Sequence record: MN850614.1
Source of the DNA: Escherichia phage adrianh
Direction: 5' to 3' (one strand)
Length of the DNA stretch: 64,000 nt
Below are positions 7,243 to 51,460 of the stretch, piece after piece. The translations under genes and the position numbers were made by a program. Positions within the stretch are counted from its first letter, which is position 1; each line of letters starts with the position of its first letter. Under the pieces are notes generated by a model that saw only the letters and a list, made by a program, of their open reading frames with translations, did no database searches and was not told where the DNA came from.

Positions 7243-7767
7243 TTACCTTAGCATGTGTGATTTTACTGGAATAAAGATACCAAATTGTGAGACTGCTAAA
7301 CCAGATAGTGACATACACTGTTCAGGTAAGTACACAAAAGCCCCTGTGTAGAAGTCTATAAAAGAACCATCATCTTGTTTGCAGGCTAGTTTTCCATAAC
7401 CATAGTTGTACAACTTTAATGAACCATCCTCATACTTTGAGTAGTTCTTGAACTGAACATTAAAAGCATATTCAGAGAACCTTGTGTACAGGTCATAAAG
7501 CAATCCAATACTGTCGTCGACTATTGCTACACCAAACTTTTTACAAATATCCACATAGTTTTTGTATAATTTATTATGATTTTCAGGTGTTGCAAAGTTT
7601 GTATACCAATGTTCTAAGATAGATAACTTAATTGGCTGATTTTTAGAATATTCTAATACCTTCATGTCATACCAAGATTTCCTAAGTCTGACATCATCTA
7701 GCCTTAAATTTTGAGACACTTCGCGGAAGTTTTTGATGATTATATTTCTGCGCCTGTTGTCAATCAT
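7243..7767 (-). CDS. Hypothetical protein
   Basis: Start moved to the internal ATG (MIDNRRRN) because it has RBS AGAGGA upstream and removes the overlap with the gene at 7770-7961. Confidence 0.45.
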   Translation of the reverse strand: MIDNRRRNIIIKNFREVSQNLRLDDVRLRKSWYDMKVLEYSKNQPIKLSILEHWYTNFATPENHNKLYKNYVDICKKFGVAIVDDSIGLLYDLYTRFSEYAFNVQFKNYSKYEDGSLKLYNYGYGKLACKQDDGSFIDFYTGAFVYLPEQCMSLSGLAVSQFGIFIPVKSHMLR

Positions 7768-41607: not shown

Positions 41608-42393
41608 ATGGGTATTGTAAAAATCATCAATGGTGATATCTTTGCAGCATTTGATAAAGGTAAGTTTGATGTCATCGGTCACGGTTGCAACTGTATGAAC
41701 TTAATGGGCGCAGGTATCGCTGACAAGATTTCCAAACTTTACCCAAAAGCATATGAGACCGACACAGAAGTTTATATGTATGCAGGTGGTATAGGACACA
41801 AACCCTGTGAAAATTTACTGGGTAATTTCTCTGTAGCACGTTTAAAACAAGGTCGTATAGCTAACCTTTACACTCAGCTTAAGACTGGTAAAGATGCCCG
41901 ATACAGTGCTTTAGAGTCATCTTTGAAGCAGCTTAACAGATACTGTGAAGTCAATCAGTTGAAGAAAGTAGGGTTACCTATGATTGGTGCAGGTATCGGT
42001 GGGCTAGACCCTCAAGCCGTCACAGTTATCATTAATCAGGTGATGAAGAGTGTAGATGTGTATCTATATGTCTATGAAGGAGAGATGTACCACAAGTTAT
42101 GCTCAGGTTGGAAGAACTACTGTGAACCAGAATACTTTGCAGGTGTAGCAGTGTTCACGGATAATGCAGTTACCCTCTTCAGACGAAGAAAGGGTAAGAT
42201 ACATCAAAGTAACCCTCCGGTTGAAAAGATGTCTCTAAGTAACGCTCTAGTTACCCACCTGTCGAAGAGCAATCACAGAATTGCAGTAACATTTGGCAGT
42301 GATGCAGATGCTTATATCTATGCAAGAACTGATGAGGATATCGAGTTAATCTTCTCTTCACCAGAGCTTACCTTCTTAGACGCAAAGAACTAA
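41608..42393 (+). CDS. Macro-domain protein (ADP-ribose binding/processing)
   Basis: 261 aa; N-terminal macro-domain-like segment INGDIF ... GHGCNCMNLMGAGIA. Confidence 0.55.
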   Translation: MGIVKIINGDIFAAFDKGKFDVIGHGCNCMNLMGAGIADKISKLYPKAYETDTEVYMYAGGIGHKPCENLLGNFSVARLKQGRIANLYTQLKTGKDARYSALESSLKQLNRYCEVNQLKKVGLPMIGAGIGGLDPQAVTVIINQVMKSVDVYLYVYEGEMYHKLCSGWKNYCEPEYFAGVAVFTDNAVTLFRRRKGKIHQSNPPVEKMSLSNALVTHLSKSNHRIAVTFGSDADAYIYARTDEDIELIFSSPELTFLDAKN

Positions 42394-42461
42394 GAAACTT
42401 CGTAGTATATTCACAATAGACTAAGCCTTTCTTATCTGGTAAATTTTTCAGGTAAGGAGGG

Positions 42462-42650
42462 TTTTTTCATTTCAGATTTGTGCAGGTAGAGTTCTGTAGA
42501 GAAATCTATAGAGAAAATTTTGAACTCCAAAGAGAAAATTCATTTTCAAACTGTGCAGGTAATCTCCAAAGGGTTTTTTTCATTTTCAAAACGTGCAGAG
42601 AAAAATCAGGTCGGGCAAGAAAAATCATTTTAGAATTGTGCAGGTAGGTG
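42462..42650 (+). repeat. Four direct repeats, consensus TCATTTYMRA-N-TGTGCAGGTA
   Basis: Copies at about 42462, 42536, 42574 and 42620 in an ORF-free stretch after the macro-domain gene. Confidence 0.6.
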
Positions 42651-42902
42651 GGTACATGTGGGGATGTCGCCATTTCTCACAAGGCTACCACATCTAAAAA
42701 TAAAAGTCAACAGAAAAATTTGTAGCGGATTGAAAAATAATTCTTGATTGTAGTTCTGTTTTGTGGTAGTCGCGCGCACCCGTTTCATTACAATCTTTGC
42801 AAAAAATATTTTTAAAATTCCTATTGACTCTTTGAGTATGGTTATCTAATATTTGCATCAGACGGGCAATCAAGCCCACTTCCTAAACTGGAGAATCTAA
42901 AA

Positions 42903-43109
42903 ATGCTTTACAGTCGCGAATTGATGGTTACAACTAACATTAACACAAAGGCAAAACGTTTTTACATGCAAATCTGTGGCGTATGGTCTAGAATATCAGA
43001 GACTGACTATTGCAACTATGTAGAAACGGCTATAAACTCTAATTGCTACCTTACAAGAAATACAAGAAAGTACATAAGACAGACAGCAATTTATTACTAC
43101 GATAAATAA
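42903..43109 (+). CDS. Hypothetical small protein
   Basis: 68 aa ORF with AGGAGAATC... GGAGAA-like RBS upstream; low support. Confidence 0.3.
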   Translation: MLYSRELMVTTNINTKAKRFYMQICGVWSRISETDYCNYVETAINSNCYLTRNTRKYIRQTAIYYYDK

Positions 43110-43197
43110 AGTACTTTACAAGGGGCTTATAGTTCGATAAAGTAAGCCCCAGATAAAGAGCTTTACCAAATTAACCCTTAAACTAGGAGATTCAAAA
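43109..43197 (+). promoter_or_regulatory. Type A cassette, copy 1 (promoter-like, stem-loop, RBS)
   Basis: AAGTACTTTACAAGGGGCTTATAGTTCGATAAAGTAAGCCCCAGATAAAGAGCTTTACC ... GGAGA ... ATG; TTTACA-N17-TAAAGT with GGGGCTTA/TAAGCCCC stem. Confidence 0.55.
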
Positions 43198-43581
43198 ATG
43201 GCATATCGTGCACCGAAATTCATCAACAAAGACAACTTTCGCAAAGTACTGGAGAAGTCACTTGATGAGAATTTTAAAGGCAACATTATTGTTGTTCACG
43301 CATTCAATTTTAAGTATGATGTAAACGGGAATAGAATCAACCATTACACGGCAACCATGTTAGACGGTACACTATCAAGTGAAAAAGCCGTACTGAATGC
43401 ACTAGCAGGACGCGGAAAAGTATTAGTAAGATGTGATAAGCGACGTTATCAGGGTGGCGCATATGGTTATGATGATGCTGTTTATCATCTTGAAAATATG
43501 GGCTATAAAGTAGAAAAAGCTGGAGTATCGCAAATCATCGGGAGCGATGGTTATGTAACAATCTTCAAAATTAACGAATAA
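43198..43581 (+). CDS. Hypothetical protein (small-gene array 1)
   Basis: 127 aa; starts Met-Ala directly after cassette A. Confidence 0.55.
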   Translation: MAYRAPKFINKDNFRKVLEKSLDENFKGNIIVVHAFNFKYDVNGNRINHYTATMLDGTLSSEKAVLNALAGRGKVLVRCDKRRYQGGAYGYDDAVYHLENMGYKVEKAGVSQIIGSDGYVTIFKINE

Positions 43582-43667
43582 AGTACTTTACAAGGGGCTT
43601 ATAGTTCGATAAAGTAAGCCCCAGATAAAGAGCTTTACCACTAAATCCTAAATTGGAGAACTTAAAA
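43581..43667 (+). promoter_or_regulatory. Type A cassette, copy 2
   Basis: Near-identical to copy 1. Confidence 0.55.
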
Positions 43668-43901
43668 ATGGCTATTATCAAAAACGTTGTAATTGCTGCA
43701 AAAACTCGTGATGACGCTCGCGTTATGGCTAAAAAGTTATGCGGGAAAGTGGTTGACAATGGGAAAAAATCTGCTGTAAGATGGGGCGTAAAGGTTGATA
43801 AACATTTAACCTTAAAACGTAGTTCAAACAACCTTTTTAAAGGTGTAAAATCACTCGGTAAAGTGAATGTTTTCACTAAAAAGGTTATAAAATGCACTTA
43901 G
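43668..43901 (+). CDS. Hypothetical protein (small-gene array 2)
   Basis: Start set to the ATG at 43668 (the ORF track begins at a TTG inside the cassette). Confidence 0.5.
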   Translation: MAIIKNVVIAAKTRDDARVMAKKLCGKVVDNGKKSAVRWGVKVDKHLTLKRSSNNLFKGVKSLGKVNVFTKKVIKCT

Positions 43902-43925
43902 CATTAACTGGAAATTTAATCTGAT

Positions 43926-44012
43926 AAAGTACTTTACATGGGGTTTAAAAGTTGATATCTTAAGCCCCAGATAAAGAGCTTTACCACTCAATCCTAAACT
44001 GGAGATTCAAAA
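43926..44012 (+). promoter_or_regulatory. Type A cassette, copy 3 (variant)
   Basis: Variant stem GGGGTTTA/TAAGCCCC (a C-to-T change that still pairs as G-U). Confidence 0.5.
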
Positions 44013-44525
44013 ATGAAAACTGTAGACGCTACTTTTGAAGTTGTAAAAGAAAAATTCACCATTATCTATGAAGCGGTAAATTGCTTTGAAGCAAGCCATA
44101 ATCTTGATAATTGGAAGTTTACAGATGACCATCAAGGCGGTGTGACTATTAAAAATCCTAACTGTCAGCGTAACGATTTTAAATATGCAATTCCTTTAAA
44201 TTATAGCCTTAAGCAGCTTTCTAGTGACTATGCAAAACAAGGCCGGGAAAACCCATCAAAAGAGGCTTATATCAGCTTACAGGAAGAACTAGAAAGAGAT
44301 TTAGAGGCTTCAGAGTACAACCTTGCCGCGAAAGTTGTGGATGCAAACGGTAACACGGTTTTAGAAAGTTTTTATCTTGGTTATGCTTTCGATTGGTGCT
44401 ATCGTGACGGCGATGATTTAGAGGATAGACTAAAAGAAGAGGTGAGCAATTCAGACGCAGAAACTGAAGTATTAGAACGTTTGGAATCGTTGAAAGACTC
44501 AGTGATGAATATCTTTAAGAACTAA
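44013..44525 (+). CDS. Hypothetical acidic protein (small-gene array 3)
   Basis: 170 aa. Confidence 0.55.
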   Translation: MKTVDATFEVVKEKFTIIYEAVNCFEASHNLDNWKFTDDHQGGVTIKNPNCQRNDFKYAIPLNYSLKQLSSDYAKQGRENPSKEAYISLQEELERDLEASEYNLAAKVVDANGNTVLESFYLGYAFDWCYRDGDDLEDRLKEEVSNSDAETEVLERLESLKDSVMNIFKN

Positions 44526-44529
44526 ATAG

Positions 44530-44617
44530 ATTTCTTTACACGGGGCTAACAAGCTGATATGATAGCCCCAGATAAAGAGATTTATCAAATAAAGCCCTTA
44601 AACTAGGAGATTCTAAA
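44530..44617 (+). promoter_or_regulatory. Type A cassette, copy 4 (variant)
   Basis: Stem GGGGCTA/TAGCCCC with a different loop sequence; flanks conserved. Confidence 0.5.
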
Positions 44618-44914
44618 ATGAAATTATCGAATAAAGTTCGTGAAAATCTGAGCAAATTACTCAACAAAATTGATTTCATTGAAACATCAAGAAATAGTCA
44701 TGATGTTATGGAATGGTTACACGGCAAAATAAAAGGCCGTCGTGTAGTGATTTGTTTATGGAATAGTTGCAGGGAGTATAAAAAACCTGTATTGCAAGTA
44801 AATATTTATGATGATACTTTTAAAAGTCCTGTAAAGTCTAAAAGTGATTTATTAGAATCCTATGAGATAACTTTAAATGGCAAAGTATCACGTAAAGAGG
44901 AAACACCATGTTAA
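44618..44914 (+). CDS. Hypothetical protein (small-gene array 4)
   Basis: 98 aa. Confidence 0.5.
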   Translation: MKLSNKVRENLSKLLNKIDFIETSRNSHDVMEWLHGKIKGRRVVICLWNSCREYKKPVLQVNIYDDTFKSPVKSKSDLLESYEITLNGKVSRKEETPC

Positions 44915-45240
44915 TGACTGGTATCACTGCAATCATTGCCATTTTCGCGCTATATAAGGCATATAAAGCCTATAATCTAGCAAATAAGGCAATCACACAG
45001 CAGGTTAGCAATAACCTTGTAGAAAGCTTTCTAGGGCGCCTCAGTGATGAGCAAATAAAGCGGCTAGAGATGAGCTTCAGATATAAAGCGAAAACCTATC
45101 AGATAAGTGACATCTTCAAAGATGATTTTCAGTTAGTGGATGATTATAACTCTCTGATAAATGCTTTAAATATTAGTGACTTAAAAGACTATTACGCTGT
45201 AATTGTCCAAGAATTGAACAAACGAAAAAATTCCTCTTGA
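44908..45240 (+). CDS. Hypothetical membrane protein (small-gene array 5)
   Basis: 110 aa; N-terminal hydrophobic helix; start overlaps upstream stop. Confidence 0.5.
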   Translation: MLMTGITAIIAIFALYKAYKAYNLANKAITQQVSNNLVESFLGRLSDEQIKRLEMSFRYKAKTYQISDIFKDDFQLVDDYNSLINALNISDLKDYYAVIVQELNKRKNSS

Positions 45241-45328
45241 TTTTGGTTTTTAAAACAAGTAAATTACTAATCAACGGGAGGTAATAACCTCCCCACTAAG
45301 TAAAATCCTTAAACTAGGAGCTTTTAAA
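45236..45328 (+). promoter_or_regulatory. Type B cassette, copy 1
   Basis: CTTGATTTTGGTTTTTAAAACAAGTAAATTACTAATCAACGGGAGG-loop-CCTCCCC ACTAA ... AGGAG ... ATG. Confidence 0.55.
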
Positions 45329-45601
45329 ATGTACACTACTAACAACGGTCGCACCTTAAACGTAACCCTACGCCACTACATGAACGGCGTAATGCACTTC
45401 GAGGATTTACAAGCCGAACAACATATCTTAGATTGGCAACTTGCAGGACTACAAAAAACTGCTACAGGATACGGGAAAAAGATTCCAACCAGTTGGAAAG
45501 TATACTACGAAGGCCGTTTGCGCAGAATTTATCAGGATGTGCAAAGCAATAGCGCATTGAGTTACATCATAGTAAAAGGTAAAAAGCTGCATTTAGTATA
45601 A
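45329..45601 (+). CDS. Hypothetical protein (small-gene array 6)
   Basis: 90 aa. Confidence 0.5.
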   Translation: MYTTNNGRTLNVTLRHYMNGVMHFEDLQAEQHILDWQLAGLQKTATGYGKKIPTSWKVYYEGRLRRIYQDVQSNSALSYIIVKGKKLHLV

Positions 45602-45687
45602 AGTACTTTACAAGGGGCTTATAGTTCGATAAAGTAAGCCCCAGATAAAGAGCTTTACCACTAAATCCTAAATTGGAGAACTTAAAA
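45601..45687 (+). promoter_or_regulatory. Type A cassette, copy 5
   Basis: Near-identical to copy 1. Confidence 0.55.
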
Positions 45688-46092
45688 ATGGCTATTAATA
45701 ATCGCGAGTTATCAATCTTAAAAGCACGTTTGACCGTTAACCGGATTAATGTTATTACGTCATCAGCACCGGACGAAACATTGCACAACATTATTGGGAA
45801 GATTCAAAGCGTTATCTTAGACGTTGAAAACGTAAAAAACTCATTGGCTGACGTTGCAGCAGGTATCACGCTAGACGGTGCACAATATGAAATGACCGAC
45901 ATGTTAGGCAAATCTAAGGTAATGAATAAAGAGCTTGATTTGAAAATGTTTCGGTTTGCTGTTAAAGTGTGGCTATCTGTCGAGTATGACGCTAACTTTG
46001 CAATCGCTGACTTTTTCGCCACTTGGTTACAACGTAATTTGACAAATCATGATTTTCGTGGTATCTGTGATGCAATTTATGCAGAACTCTAA
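45688..46092 (+). CDS. Hypothetical protein (small-gene array 7)
   Basis: Start set to ATG 45688 (the ORF track begins at a TTG inside the cassette). Confidence 0.5.
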   Translation: MAINNRELSILKARLTVNRINVITSSAPDETLHNIIGKIQSVILDVENVKNSLADVAAGITLDGAQYEMTDMLGKSKVMNKELDLKMFRFAVKVWLSVEYDANFAIADFFATWLQRNLTNHDFRGICDAIYAEL

Positions 46093-46098
46093 AAATTT

Positions 46099-46193
46099 AT
46101 CTTGATTTTGGTTTTTAAAACAAGTAAATTACTAATCAACGGGAGGTAATAGCCTCCCCACTAAACAAAGTCCTTAAACTAGGAGATTCAAAA
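46099..46193 (+). promoter_or_regulatory. Type B cassette, copy 2
   Basis: Same sequence as type B copy 1, including the upstream CTTGATTTTGGTTTTTAAAA. Confidence 0.55.
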
Positions 46194-46397
46194 ATGGCTA
46201 TTATTAACGGTTTAACCATTGAAACTACACACATCAAAGATATTAAAGTCGGTGATGTAGTTCTCTTTCACGGCGTAGAAAAAACCGTCACGGCGAAAGA
46301 TATTACAGAGGACTCCTTCATGGGTAGGTCACTCTTCGGTGATTCTTATTGCTTAGGTTACCGTGCAGTTTTAAAAGTTGTAAAAAATAACCGATAA
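46194..46397 (+). CDS. Hypothetical protein (small-gene array 8)
   Basis: 67 aa. Confidence 0.45.
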   Translation: MAIINGLTIETTHIKDIKVGDVVLFHGVEKTVTAKDITEDSFMGRSLFGDSYCLGYRAVLKVVKNNR

Positions 46398-46482
46398 AGT
46401 ACTTTACAAGGGGCTTATAGTTCGATAAAGTAAGCCCCAGATAAAGAGCTTTACCACTAAATCCTAAATTGGAGATTCTAAA
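46397..46482 (+). promoter_or_regulatory. Type A cassette, copy 6
   Basis: Near-identical to copy 1. Confidence 0.55.
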
Positions 46483-47025
46483 ATGAAATGCTTTCACGGT
46501 ACTACCCAAGAAAATTTCCTCAACCTGATTAATAACGGTGACAAGCCATCAGGTGCATGGAATTGTTCGGATATGGACGGCAATTTTTACGTGTACCCAG
46601 AAAATAAAATCTATGGCGACGATGAGGAAGAGATAATCTCTGAAGGTATCCAGCAAGCGTTAGGTAATGCCACTATTACGGCCGCTTTCCAGATGAAAAC
46701 CCAAAATATTGTTATCTTAGAACTTGATATCCCAGAGGATGACCTAAATGACGATTATTCTTGTGATAATATGTCTGGCGTAGCAAGTTTTACAGAATAC
46801 TTCGATTTAAATTGGATTAAAAAGGTTTACGTAACAGAGTTTAACGCTATGTATTCGCCTTTTTGTCTTCCTTCATTGGATAACCCAAATTTAAATTATC
46901 TTGATGAGTCTCTGGAGCTTCTTGCTAAAAGTGTCCAACAGTCGGACAGTATTCAGGTTTTTTGTGACATCATGGACACACTAACGGGAAACATCGCAGA
47001 AGAGGATTTAAAGAGCTTTTTCTAA
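46483..47025 (+). CDS. Hypothetical acidic protein (small-gene array 9)
   Basis: 180 aa. Confidence 0.55.
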   Translation: MKCFHGTTQENFLNLINNGDKPSGAWNCSDMDGNFYVYPENKIYGDDEEEIISEGIQQALGNATITAAFQMKTQNIVILELDIPEDDLNDDYSCDNMSGVASFTEYFDLNWIKKVYVTEFNAMYSPFCLPSLDNPNLNYLDESLELLAKSVQQSDSIQVFCDIMDTLTGNIAEEDLKSFF

Positions 47026-47057
47026 AAACCTATGCAATCACCTTATAAACACTGATT

Positions 47058-47078
47058 AGCCCCTCACAGGGGCTTTTA
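47058..47078 (+). terminator. Rho-independent terminator
   Basis: AGCCCCT-CACA-GGGGCT hairpin followed by TTTT. Confidence 0.55.
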
Positions 47079-47091
47079 AGAGGCTTAAATC

Positions 47092-47325
47092 ATGCTTACA
47101 ACCGTTTATCTTATCCTTTCTATTTGTAATGGTCATTCATGTGATTTTAAAGGGCTTGAGGAGTTTACAGGAAGTAAAGAAAATGCTGTTCAGGTCTGTC
47201 AGATAGCAAGGCAAGACTACCCCGCCAGTGATGACATACAATGTTACTTTAAGACAGAAGATGAAGATGGTATCTATTTCGATAGTGTAGACGGTCAATA
47301 TGAAATAATTATAGAAAAAGACTAG
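47092..47325 (+). CDS. Hypothetical protein (small-gene array 10)
   Basis: 77 aa; the one array gene without a cassette. Confidence 0.4.
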   Translation: MLTTVYLILSICNGHSCDFKGLEEFTGSKENAVQVCQIARQDYPASDDIQCYFKTEDEDGIYFDSVDGQYEIIIEKD

Positions 47326-47339
47326 ACAAGCCTGATAAA

Positions 47340-47415
47340 AATCTGTAAATTACTAATCAACGGGGAGGGAATGACCTTCCCCACTAAACAAAATCCTAAA
47401 CTGGAGATTCAAAAA
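47340..47415 (+). promoter_or_regulatory. Type B cassette, copy 3 (variant stem)
   Basis: GGGGAGGGAATGACCTTCCCC stem-loop variant; flanks conserved. Confidence 0.5.
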
Positions 47416-47757
47416 ATGGCTTATGTAACCGTAATTACTGATAAAGAGGGTTCATCTTGGTCAACTCAGGTTAGTGATAAGATGTCGCCTATGCAGTGCC
47501 TAAAATACTTTGAACAGTGGAACAAAGGCGAGGACACAAGCCCCTTTCAAGTGATGCAGATTATCCATGTAGACAATGAAGGGAAGAAAACGACTTTAAA
47601 CAGCGAGTTCTATGCAACCCGATTTGAAACGAGATGTAAAACGATGAAGTTATTACGTGAATCCGGTTATGCCCATATCGCCGCGTTAATCTGGGATGAC
47701 CTGCTAAAAAGTCAGCGTATCAGCTATGTAAAACCTGAAAAAATATTCATCAGTTAA
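47416..47757 (+). CDS. Hypothetical protein (small-gene array 11)
   Basis: Start set to ATG 47416 (MAYVTV) directly after the cassette. Confidence 0.5.
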   Translation: MAYVTVITDKEGSSWSTQVSDKMSPMQCLKYFEQWNKGEDTSPFQVMQIIHVDNEGKKTTLNSEFYATRFETRCKTMKLLRESGYAHIAALIWDDLLKSQRISYVKPEKIFIS

Positions 47758-47789
47758 TCAATAACTTACAAAAAACTTTCAAAAAAGTA

Positions 47790-47818
47790 TTGACAACGCC
47801 CCTTGACATTGGTAGATT
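47790..47818 (+). promoter_or_regulatory. Sigma70-like promoter
   Basis: TTGACA, 17-nt spacer, TAGATT. Confidence 0.45.
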
Positions 47819-47902
47819 TGTTCGAGGGGGTTTATCTAAAAGGGATTAACTTAAAAGATTCTTTATAGATAAACTTAAAAAATTGCTTGCAATCAGATAT
47901 CA

Positions 47903-47978
47903 AAACAAGTAAATTACTAATCAACGGGAGGTAATAGCCTCCCCACTAAACAAAGTCCTTAAACTAGGAGATTCAAAA
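47903..47978 (+). promoter_or_regulatory. Type B cassette, copy 4
   Basis: GGGAGGTAATAGCCTCCCC hairpin with conserved flanks. Confidence 0.55.
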
Positions 47979-48509
47979 ATGAACAAATTTCAAGCTATCA
48001 ACTACATTCGCTCAAATGCTGTAATGTCTAAGCCTGTTAAAGATACCTATGAATTTCGCTGCAATGGGGTACACTTTGCAACCATCACTAAATCAGAAAA
48101 CGGGGCTTATTACGTTCATCGTCGTAATGTTGCAACCGTTGTAGTCTCTCACTTTATGCAAGCTGTAGCAGAGTTATTACCGCTATTCTTAGGGATTTAC
48201 TTGGATGAGTGTAAAAACGTTCACAACCACGTTAAAAACCTTTTAAACGGTTATAAAATGGCTTATGAACGTTCTATCAAGTCCTTAAACAAGTTCTATA
48301 AAGCCCCTGTAAATACTGTTTCAATGGCCTACGCTGCAAATGGTGAAAGAGTAAACCTATCCGATGTGGAAGATATCGAGCTTTACGACCATCGGCCTAA
48401 CGGTTACTCTCAGACACTCGGTGAAGGTTTAACGTTCAATATCAAGAACTTAGAAAAAACTTTAAAAGATATTGAAAAAGATATTGACGAGACAATCAAA
48501 AATCTGTAA
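47979..48509 (+). CDS. Hypothetical protein (small-gene array 12)
   Basis: 176 aa. Confidence 0.55.
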   Translation: MNKFQAINYIRSNAVMSKPVKDTYEFRCNGVHFATITKSENGAYYVHRRNVATVVVSHFMQAVAELLPLFLGIYLDECKNVHNHVKNLLNGYKMAYERSIKSLNKFYKAPVNTVSMAYAANGERVNLSDVEDIELYDHRPNGYSQTLGEGLTFNIKNLEKTLKDIEKDIDETIKNL

Positions 48510-48573
48510 ATTACTAATCAACGGGAGGTAATAGCCTCCCCACTAAACAAAGTCCTAAACTGGAGTTATCAAG
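48500..48573 (+). promoter_or_regulatory. Type B cassette, copy 5
   Basis: Overlaps the stop of the upstream gene; hairpin conserved. Confidence 0.5.
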
Positions 48574-48837
48574 ATGGAAAACGTAGAATTAACCACACTT
48601 TTACAAATTGCAACCGACAAAGAAGATGTAGCATTATTCCACCGTATCGAAAGTGATTTGTTCAATGGTGAAATCATCAAAGAATCTTATGAAGTTGTCG
48701 GATTCAAAGATGGTAAAGCGTTTGGCTTTTTTGACCTCGACAAAGGCAACGCGGTTGCAAAATATGATGTTTTATCTTGTGAGATTCTTACAAAATACAA
48801 CGAAAAAAGGCTTGCAACATACGCCAACATGCAGTAA
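48574..48837 (+). CDS. Hypothetical protein (small-gene array 13)
   Basis: 87 aa. Confidence 0.5.
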   Translation: MENVELTTLLQIATDKEDVALFHRIESDLFNGEIIKESYEVVGFKDGKAFGFFDLDKGNAVAKYDVLSCEILTKYNEKRLATYANMQ

Positions 48838-48903
48838 ATTACTAATCAACGGGAGGCGACAACCTCCCCACTAAATAAAACCCTTAAACTAGGAGATTCA
48901 AAA
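48832..48903 (+). promoter_or_regulatory. Type B cassette, copy 6 (loop variant)
   Basis: Stem GGGAGG/CCTCCC kept while the loop changes to CGACAA. Confidence 0.5.
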
Positions 48904-49152
48904 ATGGCAACTATCCGCGCTACTGTTAACGAGTTCGGTTTTTCCTCTCTGGATGTTAAATTTGACATTGTAGGCACTGATAACGCCTTTGAAATGGTGA
49001 AAGGTCTTATCAGTCAGACCATCAAAGGCTATAATCCTTCTAAGGAGTTCTGGGAGGAAACAAAACAGGAAGTTCTTAAGGATGGTTACACTTATCACTA
49101 TTGGGGAGAAAAAATCGTCTCCCTGTACTACGACAAACAAGATTATAACTAA
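48904..49152 (+). CDS. Hypothetical protein (small-gene array 14)
   Basis: 82 aa. Confidence 0.5.
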   Translation: MATIRATVNEFGFSSLDVKFDIVGTDNAFEMVKGLISQTIKGYNPSKEFWEETKQEVLKDGYTYHYWGEKIVSLYYDKQDYN

Positions 49153-49191
49153 TCGGCGCAGCGGGGCTAAATAGCCCCAGATACCTTTACA

Positions 49192-49217
49192 GCCCCTTTC
49201 CCATAGGGGCTTTTTTA
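49192..49217 (+). terminator. Rho-independent terminator closing the plus-strand block
   Basis: GCCCCT-TTCCCAT-AGGGGC hairpin followed by TTTTTT. Confidence 0.65.
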
Positions 49218-49219
49218 CG

Positions 49220-50780
49220 TCTATCCAATCCTCATACAACCCCTTTCCCTTTCCTTTCCAGAATCTTATCAGACCTTAAAAAGCAATAACTTTACAGCCT
49301 TTTACTAAGTCAATTAATTGGCCTTATTAATAAGCCCTTAAACATAAGCCAATAACCCCAGAAAGGGGGCAACCCATTTAAACGCCATATAAAGCCCTAT
49401 AACGGCCTTTTTAACCTAACTTAAGGGATTGCATTACCTCACCCTTAAAAGCCCTTTATAAAGCTTCACAGAGCCTTAAAAGAATCTTATAAGGGTGTAA
49501 GCTTTATTATCTCGTTAGCTATCTTGTGAACTACTAAACAACCCCCTTGATAGTAACTGAAAAGTATGTTATAGGGGCTTTAAAGTTACTTTGAAGTATC
49601 TTAAGAGTTACGTAAATGCTAGCCCCCTTAACATTCTCTTAACAATTTCTTAACAATCCCTACATAGTTATGCTTTTAAGGCACTTGTTAGCAACTTGTT
49701 AGCCCCTTGTTAAATCTCTGTTAAGACCACGTAAAAGCCTTGTAAGAGTCTTTGACATAGCCTTTAAAGCTTCTGTAAAGCCTTATAAAGAGGTGTCTGT
49801 ACAGTTGGGGTGTAACTACTAGTGAGAGACTTAAAAGAGCTTACAAGGAGCTATAGAGAGCTTTTAAGAGGTATGTTTAAGGAATCACTAAGAAAGGAAA
49901 GGGAACGATAAGAAAAGAGTAGTGACCATGTTAATAGCTTGTTAAAAAGATTAAACACTTGTTAGAAACTTGTTAATTATCTTAACAAAATAACTCTTTA
50001 AAATTAACTTGTTAGCTCTTGTTAGTCATCTGTTAAGCCTCTGTAAAGACTATTCAGCACTTGTTAATTGGTATTGTTACCAATCCCTAGAAAACTGTTA
50101 AGCCCTTGTCAGTTCTGTTAAGAAACTGTTAAGACCTTTGAAGAGTTGTTAAGAAGATGTGAGAACTGTTAAGAGATTGTTAAGGATATTTTAAAATTTT
50201 GCAAAGGGGATGTTACAGGGATGTTAAGGGCTACCAAGCAGATATACATCCTCTACAGATATTTTTCAGTTCCTTCAAAGACCCTAAAAAAAAAATGACT
50301 TGACAGTCTTATTTTATAAAAATTTTAAAATTCTGAATAATTACCTAGACAGTCTTTTAAAAATACAGGTAGAAACAGGCTTATAAGATACCTTGTTAGT
50401 ACCGTGTTAGACCTTGTGAGATAAGGTCTGTGAAGATATTCCTGTTAAGTTTGTTAAAACAGCCTATATAGAGGCTTAGTAATACCTAGTGAACACCTAT
50501 AGAGGGTAACATAGCTAACCTAGAGATTAAGAGGTGTATAGGAGCTTCTAAGAGTGTGTAGAGAGATGGTTAAGGTGATTGTATAGGTTGTTAAGAAGGC
50601 TTGTTAGAAGAGTGTTTAGAAGGCTTGTTAGAGGGCTAGTTAGAAGGGTTATACAGAGGGGCTATTAAGACCACTAGATAGTTACTAAGATACTATATAG
50701 TACTATATAACTATATATAGAGAGTAAGATTAAGAAGGTTGTTAAGAAGGGTAGATATTTTATTCACATATGATGGTGAC
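49220..50780. repeat. ORF-free region dense in short direct repeats (iteron-like)
   Basis: No ORF of 60 aa or more on either strand over about 1.6 kb; 49220-49520 rich in AGCC(C/T)TTWWAA-type motifs; 49520-50700 carries more than 25 copies of YTGTTARG; AT-rich ACTATATA repeats at about 50690-50725. Confidence 0.6.
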
Positions 50781-50854
50781 CCAGAGGTTGGGACAACCGA
50801 TAAAATTTTATAAAAATTAAAAAGCCCCCCAATTAAGGAGGCTCTTAAGATATT

Positions 50855-51460
50855 TTAAATGAGTGTTTCCAGAACTGTCTTCAGTGATGACTTGGTTGTC
50901 TGATAAAAATGAGTGAAGCCATTGTTGTTATCAAACACCTGCATCATGATACCATCTCCCTTGATTGGGTACACTCGGATATCATAGTGAAACCCATTAA
51001 AGACAGCAGAACCACTACAGAATGAACTAAAATCATCTACTGAGATGTACTCTTCATGACCTGTGATTTTTATACAAACACCTTTACTCGGTCTCTTAGG
51101 GTTGATATCTTCCATCACAGACATATTCTGTCCACCAAGAGATACCATAGTGACCACTTTACGGTTCTTCTGTCTGAAGTACATTTTAACTTTCTGCAAG
51201 GTGTCTTCATAGAACGGATAAGACTTCTCTACAAAGATTCCTTCAAGTGGCTCTTTACCGTTTACAATACCTCTGGTATGTCGTACTGAGAAGATAAGTT
51301 GCTCTAGCAGGTCAAGGCTTTCTTCGGATAGTGCTTCCCTAATATCATTCCAATCAAGTACTAGGTAGTTACCTTCAACATCTTTTAAGTTATCTTTTTC
51401 CATATCTATCACACCATTATCGTAAAACTTGGTAAGCTGGGACTGCAAACTTGTTGCCAT
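50855..51460 (-). CDS. Hypothetical protein
   Basis: 201 aa, last gene of the minus-strand operon. Confidence 0.55.
   Translation of the reverse strand: MATSLQSQLTKFYDNGVIDMEKDNLKDVEGNYLVLDWNDIREALSEESLDLLEQLIFSVRHTRGIVNGKEPLEGIFVEKSYPFYEDTLQKVKMYFRQKNRKVVTMVSLGGQNMSVMEDINPKRPSKGVCIKITGHEEYISVDDFSSFCSGSAVFNGFHYDIRVYPIKGDGIMMQVFDNNNGFTHFYQTTKSSLKTVLETLI

Follow-up and report, generated by a model that had tools for sequence, protein, structure and literature searches.

Within a 64,000 nt stretch of Escherichia phage adrianh (sequence record MN850614.1; this whole stretch is referred to here as the window), an array of small genes is interspersed with repeated cassettes that resemble the promoter-early-stem-loop (PeSL) elements of T4-type phages. 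The array is probably a set of self-contained early expression units whose cassette copies recombine with one another and so swap genes. Each unit would open with a 70-95 bp cassette comprising the stop codon of the preceding gene, a promoter of the host sigma-70 type, a G/C-clamped stem-loop, and, after an A-rich leader that carries a GGAG ribosome site, the ATG. We consider the promoter and ribosome-site assignment, together with cassette-mediated exchange, to be very likely, and give the specific roles proposed below for the type A and type B/C hairpins an even chance of being correct. The initial annotation, made from the letters of the window, had already proposed PeSL-type cassettes at this locus, and that reading is supported on every point accessible to sequence and comparison (promoter, stem-loop, Shine-Dalgarno (SD) sequence, ATG, and gene shuffling). 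Judged from its sequence, the array gives a second phage lineage a PeSL-like system of its own, analogous and not homologous to the first, and with a variant in which the hairpin lies in the 5' untranslated region (UTR).

A megablast search with positions 43000-49200 returned 254 matching phage records at 85-94% identity, nearly all from the Felix O1 group (Felixounavirus, Ounavirinae) and comprising Escherichia, Salmonella, Shigella, and Citrobacter phages. By these matches the phage of the window is Felix O1-like (Felixounavirus). The array is the counterpart of open reading frames (ORFs) 15-23 of Felix O1; it is preceded by a macro-domain 'phosphatase' gene (41608-42393) and ends at an intrinsic terminator (49191-49211) that corresponds to Felix O1 t23.

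Cassette anatomy and promoters

Scans of the 64 kb recovered six type A and six type B cassettes, as first counted, all on the + strand between 43107 and 48906 and none elsewhere. A repeat search, Hamming scans, and pattern searches agree on these cassettes, and the observation of repeated cassettes is confirmed. Four of the six type A copies are identical over 54 nt; the six type B copies all contain TAAATTACTAATCAACGGG, and three are identical over 50 nt, while the expected number of chance matches to either core is 0.00 (100 shuffles). The -35 hexamer TTTACA of type A starts at 43115, 43587, 43933, 44535, 45607, and 46403, and the -10 hexamer TAAATT of type B at 45260, 46125, 47346, 47910, 48507, and 48835. 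The two types do not strictly alternate, as had been thought, and follow the order A A A A B A B A B B B B. The array also begins earlier than the initial annotation placed it, as a thirteenth cassette of a third type, C (42824-42905), and a fifteenth small gene behind it, w6, lie just upstream, at 42824-43109. The repeated, conserved intergenic motif of about 70-100 bp that characterizes PeSLs is therefore present in 12 copies and one variant, as follows (genes are numbered w6 to w21).

42824-42905, + strand: type C cassette, TTGACT-N17-TAATAT; hairpin GGGC-AATCAA-GCCC at 42864-42877; SD 42890; ATG 42903
43107-43200, + strand: cassette A1; -35 43115-43120; -10 43138-43143; stem 43122-43130/43142-43150; SD 43186; ATG 43198
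43579-43670, + strand: cassette A2; -35 43587; -10 43610-43615; stem 43594-43602/43614-43622; ATG 43668
43925-44015, + strand: cassette A3; -10 TATCTT; stem GGGGTTTAA/TTAAGCCCC with one U-G wobble pair
44523-44620, + strand: cassette A4; -10 TATGAT with TG upstream; stem GGGGCTA/TAGCCCC
45237-45331, + strand: cassette B1; -35 TTGATT includes the w11 stop (TGA); -10 45260; hairpin 45276-45293; ATG 45329
45599-45690, + strand: cassette A5
46102-46196, + strand: cassette B2, TTGATT-N17-TAAATT; hairpin 46141-46158; ATG 46194
46395-46485, + strand: cassette A6, left edge of the w15 divergent-allele replacement
47323-47418, + strand: cassette B3; -35 TAGACA includes the w16 stop (TAG); hairpin GGGGAGGG-AATGA-CCTTCCCC; ATG 47416
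47887-47981, + strand: cassette B4
48484-48576, + strand: cassette B5; -35 TTGACG in the last w18 codons; the w18 stop starts the -10
48812-48906, + strand: cassette B6

A shared leader, the GGAG ribosome site, and the ATG end every cassette type, with GGAG placed 8-9 nt 5' of the ATG in 13 of 13 cassettes. An SD and a start codon at the 3' end of the motif are features of PeSLs too. Conservation extends into the second codon, in agreement with the initial annotation: six of the 12 genes behind the A and B cassettes start with ATGGC, and three unrelated genes share ATGGCTATTA at their start. A helix of 3-4 bp can form between the ribosome site and a conserved CCU about 6 nt 5' of GGAG (e.g., 46172-46185 and 47395-47406) in both ribosome-site variants described below, and this helix could weakly mask the site.

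Type A cassettes consist of ATAAAGTAC, TTTACA, one base, a 5' arm GGGGCTTA(T), a loop, a 3' arm (G)TAAGCCCC, AGATAAAGAGCTTTACC, the leader, GGAG, and ATG. The arms, the ribosome site, and TTTACA-N17-TAAAGT are as originally described, and the -10, 17 nt after TTTACA, can also read TATCTT or TATGAT in copies of the window. The stem of 7-9 bp is G/C-clamped and straddles the -10. We collected 46 distinct type A variants from 12 genomes, of which 45 have TTTACA and one TCTACA; all of them have TAnnnT at 17-18 nt, a pattern that is kept although the letters of the -10 vary. Under standard promoter geometry a -10 located in the loop and 3' arm implies that the cassette's own transcript would start at or after the 3' arm, and would thus lack the hairpin. 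A conserved TAAAGT upstream of type A, which overlaps the TAA stop codon of the preceding gene in four cases (w6, w7, w12, and w14), was evaluated as a second -10 that would place the hairpin in the 5' UTR; it was rejected, as the best -35 score (2.77 of 6) is close to background (2.58).

In types B and C only the part from the -10 to the ATG is repeated, and the -35 varies between copies (TTGATT, TTGCAA, TTGACG, TAGACA, and TTGACA were seen). At least four of six positions match TTGACA in 66 of 67 type B and C copies from 11 genomes (mean 4.8, background 2.6), and the spacing to the -10 is 17 nt in every copy inspected. The sequence that contains these -35 hexamers lacks conservation between copies and frequently belongs to a coding region, several of the hexamers falling in the last codons of the upstream gene, and the TAA stops of w18 and w19 form the start of the -10 TAAATT. 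Since the -35s have been kept independently in non-conserved sequence, they constitute the strongest sequence argument that these are likely working promoters. The hairpin begins 10 nt (type B) or 11 nt (type C) after the -10 in all seven B and C copies of the window and at the same position in relatives, which corresponds to about +3 or +4 of the mRNA from its predicted start. In their geometry, then, the sigma-70-like -35 and -10 hexamers, 17 nt spacer, and AT-rich upstream region correspond to the promoter of a PeSL.

Hairpin structure, strand, and possible roles

The type A hairpin has a folding energy of -14.4 kcal/mol (z -4.5; 0 of 200 shuffles as stable), and the type B hairpins range from -11 to -15 kcal/mol. 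All 46 type A variants form a stem of 7-12 bp. Across their alignment 94.0% of cells are paired, compared to 88.9 +/- 0.8% after shuffling (0 of 500 shuffles reach the observed value), and pairing falls to 61% or less once the partner is displaced by 1-3 columns. For covariation the score is 0.180 vs. 0.097, and pair types vary at stem positions 3, 5, 7, 8, and 9. For example, pair 5 is C-G in 25 variants, U-G in 20, and U-A in one; pair 3 changes from G-C to U-A in an Erwinia phage; and as many as five pair types occur at pairs 8 and 9. The hairpin position of types B and C is occupied by 27 different hairpin sequences, from GGGC-N6-GCCC to GGGGAGGG-N5-CCTTCCCC, all at the same distance from the -10, and the type B form GGGAGG(T)-loop-(G)CCTCCC agrees with its first description. 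Together the energies, covariation, and slide controls point to a stable G/C stem-loop that adjoins or overlaps the promoter, as PeSLs have.

The wobble pairs are polar. Those of type A place U on the 5' arm and G on the 3' arm in 29 of 33 cases, with G-U in the remainder, while those of type B are G-U. On the - strand these pairs become A-C or C-A mismatches, which argues that the structure under selection is formed by + strand RNA. This polarity bears directly on the GenBank annotation of phage KhF1, where four type B hairpins are labeled as Rho-independent terminators of the - strand. In favor of that label, the - strand tail, GTTGATTAGTAATTT, is moderately T-rich. With A-C mismatches in place of G-U pairs, an array devoid of - strand genes, and a terminator scan silent on both strands, we regard the - strand terminator interpretation as ruled out.

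The inverted repeats might alternatively serve as DNA operators at which a dimeric phage or host regulator shuts off the early promoters. The palindromes do overlap the promoter core, with repeats that run from -28 to +1 (type A) or from +3 to +22 (type B); the outer GGGG/CCCC hardly varies, and in type A the outer ends are always 28-29 nt apart; and a symmetric GGTG/CACC change in the Erwinia phages could reflect co-evolution with a protein. Such operators are nonetheless unlikely, given that U-G at stem position 5 makes about 43% of type A variants asymmetric and that type B contains G-U pairs, both of which RNA tolerates but which make the DNA non-palindromic. Moreover, the B and C stems of one genome are unrelated and range from 4 to 8 bp (GGGC/GCCC, GGGAGG/CCTCCC, and GGGGAGGG/CCTTCCCC), and no candidate repressor was identified.

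If the hairpins act as RNA, the two arrangements would differ in where the structure appears. The type A hairpin would be present only in read-through RNA coming from upstream and absent from the cassette's own mRNA; on read-through RNA it would most likely attenuate transcription or cap the 3' end of the upstream message. In types B and C the hairpin would belong to the cassette's own mRNA and start roughly 3 nt in from its predicted 5' end, where it would most likely slow 5'-end-dependent decay, and it could act on read-through RNA too. Stabilizing stem-loops at the 5' end of bacterial and phage mRNAs, such as the 5' UTR hairpin of the ompA type, were reportedly described by Emory, Bouvet and Belasco in 1992. 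The B and C hairpin would resemble them in leaving about 2-4 unpaired nt at the 5' end, as counted from a predicted start. A scan of positions 42000-51000 against Rfam 15 found no matching family, with a single chance-level match (E = 0.93).

Gain, loss, and exchange of units among relatives

The locus was compared across ten relatives from the Ounavirinae (AYO145A, KhF1, Bas63, ECP2307, P219, UAB_Phi87, SflM_004, Felix O1, Michonne, and SUSP2), along with one Erwinia phage. Rather than an invariant, syntenic locus, the relatives show cassettes at the sites of insertion, deletion, duplication, and divergent-allele replacement, in line with the swapping of gene modules that the initial annotation had suggested. 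Gene order is kept across the ten, and units are gained and lost: Felix O1 is devoid of w7, w8, w14, w15, w16, and w19; w19 is also absent from Bas63, UAB_Phi87, and SUSP2; four phages carry an extra gene, x1; and w8 is duplicated in Michonne. The cassette-less pairs w10-w11 and w15-w16 are never split in any of the ten (Felixounavirus, Mooglevirus, and Suspvirus). Beside the duplicated w8 of Michonne (7435-7521), the ATG of one cassette runs straight into the CTTTACA of the cassette that follows, in what looks like a recombination scar at a ATGCTTTACA microhomology shared with the w6 start.

Pairwise global alignments yielded 14 independent endpoints of insertions or deletions of at least 40 nt, 13 of which lie in a cassette or within 12 nt of one (7e-8 against a uniform null). 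Each deletion (given in window coordinates) has its two ends at matching points in a pair of cassettes that belong to one type:

46124-47344: left end B2 +28, right end B3 +21
48524-48850: left end B5 +40, right end B6 +44
43110-43925: left end A1 -4, right end A3 -7

Three-way alignments revealed hybrid cassettes at the junctions. Where w19 is deleted, for instance, the upstream part of the junction cassette is like B5 and the sequence from the hairpin onward like B6, with the crossover in a shared GTAAATTACTAATCAACGGG. Allele swaps follow the same boundaries. Compared to AYO145A and SflM_004, identity is 95-100% in A6, drops to 50-70% across w15, and returns to 90-97% from 47081; in three phages, identity of about 95% in B6 gives way to 55-68% across w21 (57-60% at the amino acid level) and recovers at 49121. 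Insertions, deletions, and replacements between close relatives are thus flanked by the motif, as with PeSLs.

Parts of the cassettes also reassort. In 55 loci a given gene can be preceded by one cassette type or another (w7 by 19 A and 14 B, w17 by 17 B and 5 A, and x1 by 7 B and 5 A), and the two ribosome-site variants (r1 and r2), TTAAACTAGGAG and TAAAYTGGAG, combine with either type, all four combinations being common (A/r1 54, A/r2 147, B/r1 78, and B/r2 104). Certain hairpin variants are private to one genome and shared by paralogous positions within it: GGGAGGTAATAGCCTCCCC is restricted to the window, with three copies; Bas63 has GGGGCGGG twice, Felix O1 has the variant A15 twice, and Michonne has the variant A17 three times. 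Private variants shared by paralogous copies argue for gene conversion or unequal exchange and not for independent descent. With twelve direct copies in 6 kb, homologous recombination between copies is the expected route; it would delete, duplicate, and exchange the intervening genes and homogenize the cassettes.

The cassettes could instead be no more than expression signals under purifying selection, with viable insertions and deletions falling between genes and recombination between cassettes playing no particular part. Such a view draws on the conserved gene order and small gene pool, and on the fact that cassettes make up 85% of the non-coding positions of the array, where endpoints would land anyway; for the same reason the endpoint test is uninformative against a null restricted to intergenic sequence. 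The endpoint statistics being weak against that null, the argument is carried by register and hybrid junctions, by reassortment, and by the private variants that copies share. Deletion ends that are in register in two same-type cassettes, hybrid junction cassettes, and the free reassortment of cassette type and ribosome-site variant on one gene tell against purifying selection alone. So do unusual variants, among them the GGGGCGGG variant of Bas63 in which a base pair is broken, that recur at two paralogous sites within a genome but are missing from orthologous sites in others. We therefore find it distinctly unlikely that recombination between cassettes has no particular role.

Another possibility is that the hairpins are dedicated recombination sites, at which a structure- or sequence-specific nuclease nicks GGGGC/GCCCC as part of a specialized exchange system. 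The hairpin is common to all three cassette types, the crossover interval of the w19 deletion abuts it, and in T4-type phages Arbiol et al. placed an RB49 crossover in the loop and cited T4 deletions at GGGC/GCCC repeats (PMC2839356). The ribosome-site variant, however, reassorts independently of the hairpin and allele boundaries fall at or just after the ATG, which indicates that crossovers are spread along the cassette; no dedicated enzyme was identified, and we judge such a targeted system to be very unlikely. A broader conjecture, to which we give little credence, is that the GGGGC...GCCCC hairpins are nuclease hot spots that enable integrase-free cassette exchange with excised circles as vehicles, and that arose independently of the T4-type PeSLs. 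If true, it would point to a general phage strategy.

Several observations tell against expression units that freely exchange genes, or restrict what can be claimed for them. Neither hairpin is followed by a U-tract, the stems being followed by AGAUAAAGAG in type A and ACUAAA in type B, and the terminator scan flagged the cassette hairpins on neither strand. The only intrinsic terminators that qualified on the + strand are those at 42423-42464 and 49191-49211; termination by the cassette hairpins can therefore be proposed only by analogy with RB49. The timing seen by reverse transcription PCR (RT-PCR) in Felix O1, detailed below, gives no distinction between type A and type B genes, and the literature searched yielded no transcript-end or reporter data for this phage group. 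Finally, only 19 gene families are found behind cassettes in about 30 genomes, and their order is conserved. Exchange is thus limited, and the region is moderately plastic, not hyperplastic. Homologous exchange between cassettes that double as expression signals nevertheless remains the probable explanation of the array.

Relation to known systems, genes of the array, and flanking sequence

Types A and B are found in Felixounavirus and Mooglevirus, and type A also in Suspvirus, with 1-10 copies per genome. Diverged versions with the same layout (TTTACA-GGTGTTT...AAGCACC-AGATAAAGAG) occur in Erwinia Kolesnikvirus. In IMG/VR, a scan for exact matches placed the type A core in 43 stretches, carried by viral contigs between 54 and 94 kb long and mostly in the 84-94 kb range. 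All cassette DNA matches were in Ounavirinae-type records or in these viral contigs and none in T4-type phages, and the resemblance to PeSLs is therefore one of analogy, not of shared descent.

PeSLs were defined for the T4-type phages RB49/phi1, PST/T4, and nt-1/KVP40 (Arbiol et al. 2010, PMC2839356; Comeau et al. 2014, PMC4122927). Like them, the cassettes described here are repeated composites of about 100 bp with an AT-rich upstream region, a sigma-70-type promoter with a 17 nt spacer, a G(n)-loop-C(n) hairpin, an SD, and an ATG; they lie between small genes of unknown function and flank insertions, deletions, and replacements in close relatives; and the type A stem, which lies in the interval from -35 to -10 and extends over the -10, has the commonest RB49 arrangement. 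They differ in belonging to another subfamily (Ounavirinae) and sharing no sequence homology with the T4-type motifs, in having three classes that share one leader and ribosome-site module, in the B and C form with its hairpin inside the 5' UTR, its repeat limited to the stretch from -10 to ATG, and its -35 taken from the end of the upstream gene, and in a small gene pool of conserved order. A PeSL-type cassette is further expected to terminate or attenuate transcription from upstream through its stem-loop, and to give mini-circles when neighboring copies recombine. The array is also reminiscent of integron cassettes, as tandem small single-gene units bounded by imperfect inverted repeats vary in presence or absence between relatives. 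Unlike in integrons, there is no integrase and no attC or attI, each unit has its own promoter, and exchange looks like ordinary homologous recombination between direct repeats.

Two of the repeats were listed earlier for Felix O1, where Whichard et al. (2010, PMC3185647) reported direct repeats of at least 24 bp, including one of 57 bp and one of 39 bp in two copies each. The 57 bp repeat (CTTTACATGGGGCTTAAAAGTCTGTAAAGTAAGCCCCAGATAAAGAGCTTTACCACT) corresponds to type A and the 39 bp repeat (TTGACACTGG...TTAAATTACACATCAAC) to the promoter part of type B; in that study they received no functional reading, are absent from its predicted promoters, and are not linked to hairpins, ribosome sites, or gene-content variation. 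The same study found the Felix O1 homologues of the array genes to be transcribed at 5-25 min, with RT-PCR products for ORF16, 20, 21, and 22 at 5 min and for ORF17, 19, and 23 at 25 min (PMC3185647). GenBank records annotate at most two promoters at the array, and none of the papers found to cite the PeSL work concerns Felix O1-like phages.

PeSL-type cassettes have so far been described only in T4-type phages. The same design in unrelated sequence in a second subfamily (Felixounavirus, Mooglevirus, Suspvirus, and diverged Erwinia Kolesnikvirus) suggests a recurrent answer to two needs, the independent expression of small accessory genes and the shuffling of those genes. Felix O1-type phages serve in typing and biocontrol, and in GenBank records most of their early promoters are absent or wrongly annotated. 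With more than 250 sequenced relatives and the genetically tractable Bas63, the roles of promoter, hairpin, and recombination are directly testable.

The initial annotation counted about 14 small genes of unrelated sequence, and 14 ORFs of 67-180 amino acids (aa) are indeed found at 43198-49152, in 14 different PHROG families. With w6, the 15 array genes represent 15 different PHROG families, all of unknown function; a Pfam search of the 15 gave no match, and the anti-defence role suggested for such genes is unsupported. A cassette does precede twelve of the 14 ORFs, with the exception of those at 44908-45240 and 47092-47325, and one start was misplaced at 47371, the true start being the ATG at 47416. 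The genes and other features of the array are:

42903-43109, + strand: w6, 68 aa, phrog_5293; its stop TAA forms the first three bases of cassette A1
43198-43581, + strand: w7, 127 aa, phrog_4495
43668-43901, + strand: w8, 77 aa, phrog_5089; ends at TAG 43899, which may be a premature stop in this phage (85-97 aa in relatives)
44013-44525, + strand: w9, 170 aa, phrog_4190
44618-45240, + strand: w10, 98 aa, and overlapping w11, 110 aa from 44908; no cassette between
45329-45601, + strand: w12, 90 aa, phrog_3436
45688-46092, + strand: w13, 134 aa, phrog_4327
46194-46397, + strand: w14, 67 aa, phrog_3623
46483-47325, + strand: w15, 180 aa, terminator-like hairpin 47058-47080, and w16, 77 aa from 47092; no cassette between
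47416-47757, + strand: w17, 113 aa, phrog_4318
47790-47835, + strand: orphan promoter in a hairpin, TTGACA-N17-TAGATT with upstream TG; arms CCCCTTGA/TCGAGGGG; -10 in the loop
47979-48509, + strand: w18, 176 aa, phrog_4725
48574-48837, + strand: w19, 87 aa, phrog_7022
48904-49152, + strand: w21, 82 aa, phrog_4559
49163-49217, + strand: truncated type A remnant GGGGCTAAATAGCCCCAGATA (49163-49183), lacking a promoter, then the array-closing intrinsic terminator

The orphan promoter, a strong promoter-like site, has no gene behind it in the window, and SflM_004 and Michonne have an extra small gene at that place. The type A remnant is found at the array end in all Felixounavirus loci examined.

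The w15 product is the homologue of Bas63 gp107, and its gene lies 4 kb downstream of the macro-domain gene. Bas63 g107 matters more on E. coli S17-1 (PhageMaP, bioRxiv 10.1101/2024.10.10.617714). A sequence search of the PDB with w15 gave no match. AlphaFold models reached a predicted local distance difference test score (pLDDT) of 36.6 from the single sequence and 56.2 with a 20-sequence alignment, in which all homologues are from Ounavirinae, and Foldseek found no PDB match at E < 2. The faint Tpt1-like resemblance reported for gp107 is neither confirmed nor refuted by models this weak.

Upstream of the array, four copies of TCATTTYMRAWYKGTGCAG (42467-42647) are flanked by the terminator (42423-42464) on one side and the type C promoter (42824) on the other. 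Downstream, a non-coding stretch at 49600-50650 is dense in (C/T)TGTTA(A/G) and CTTAACA motifs at 10-12 bp spacing and may be an origin, genome terminus, or packaging region. In Erwinia phage M7, a like motif field follows the array and runs to the end of the record.

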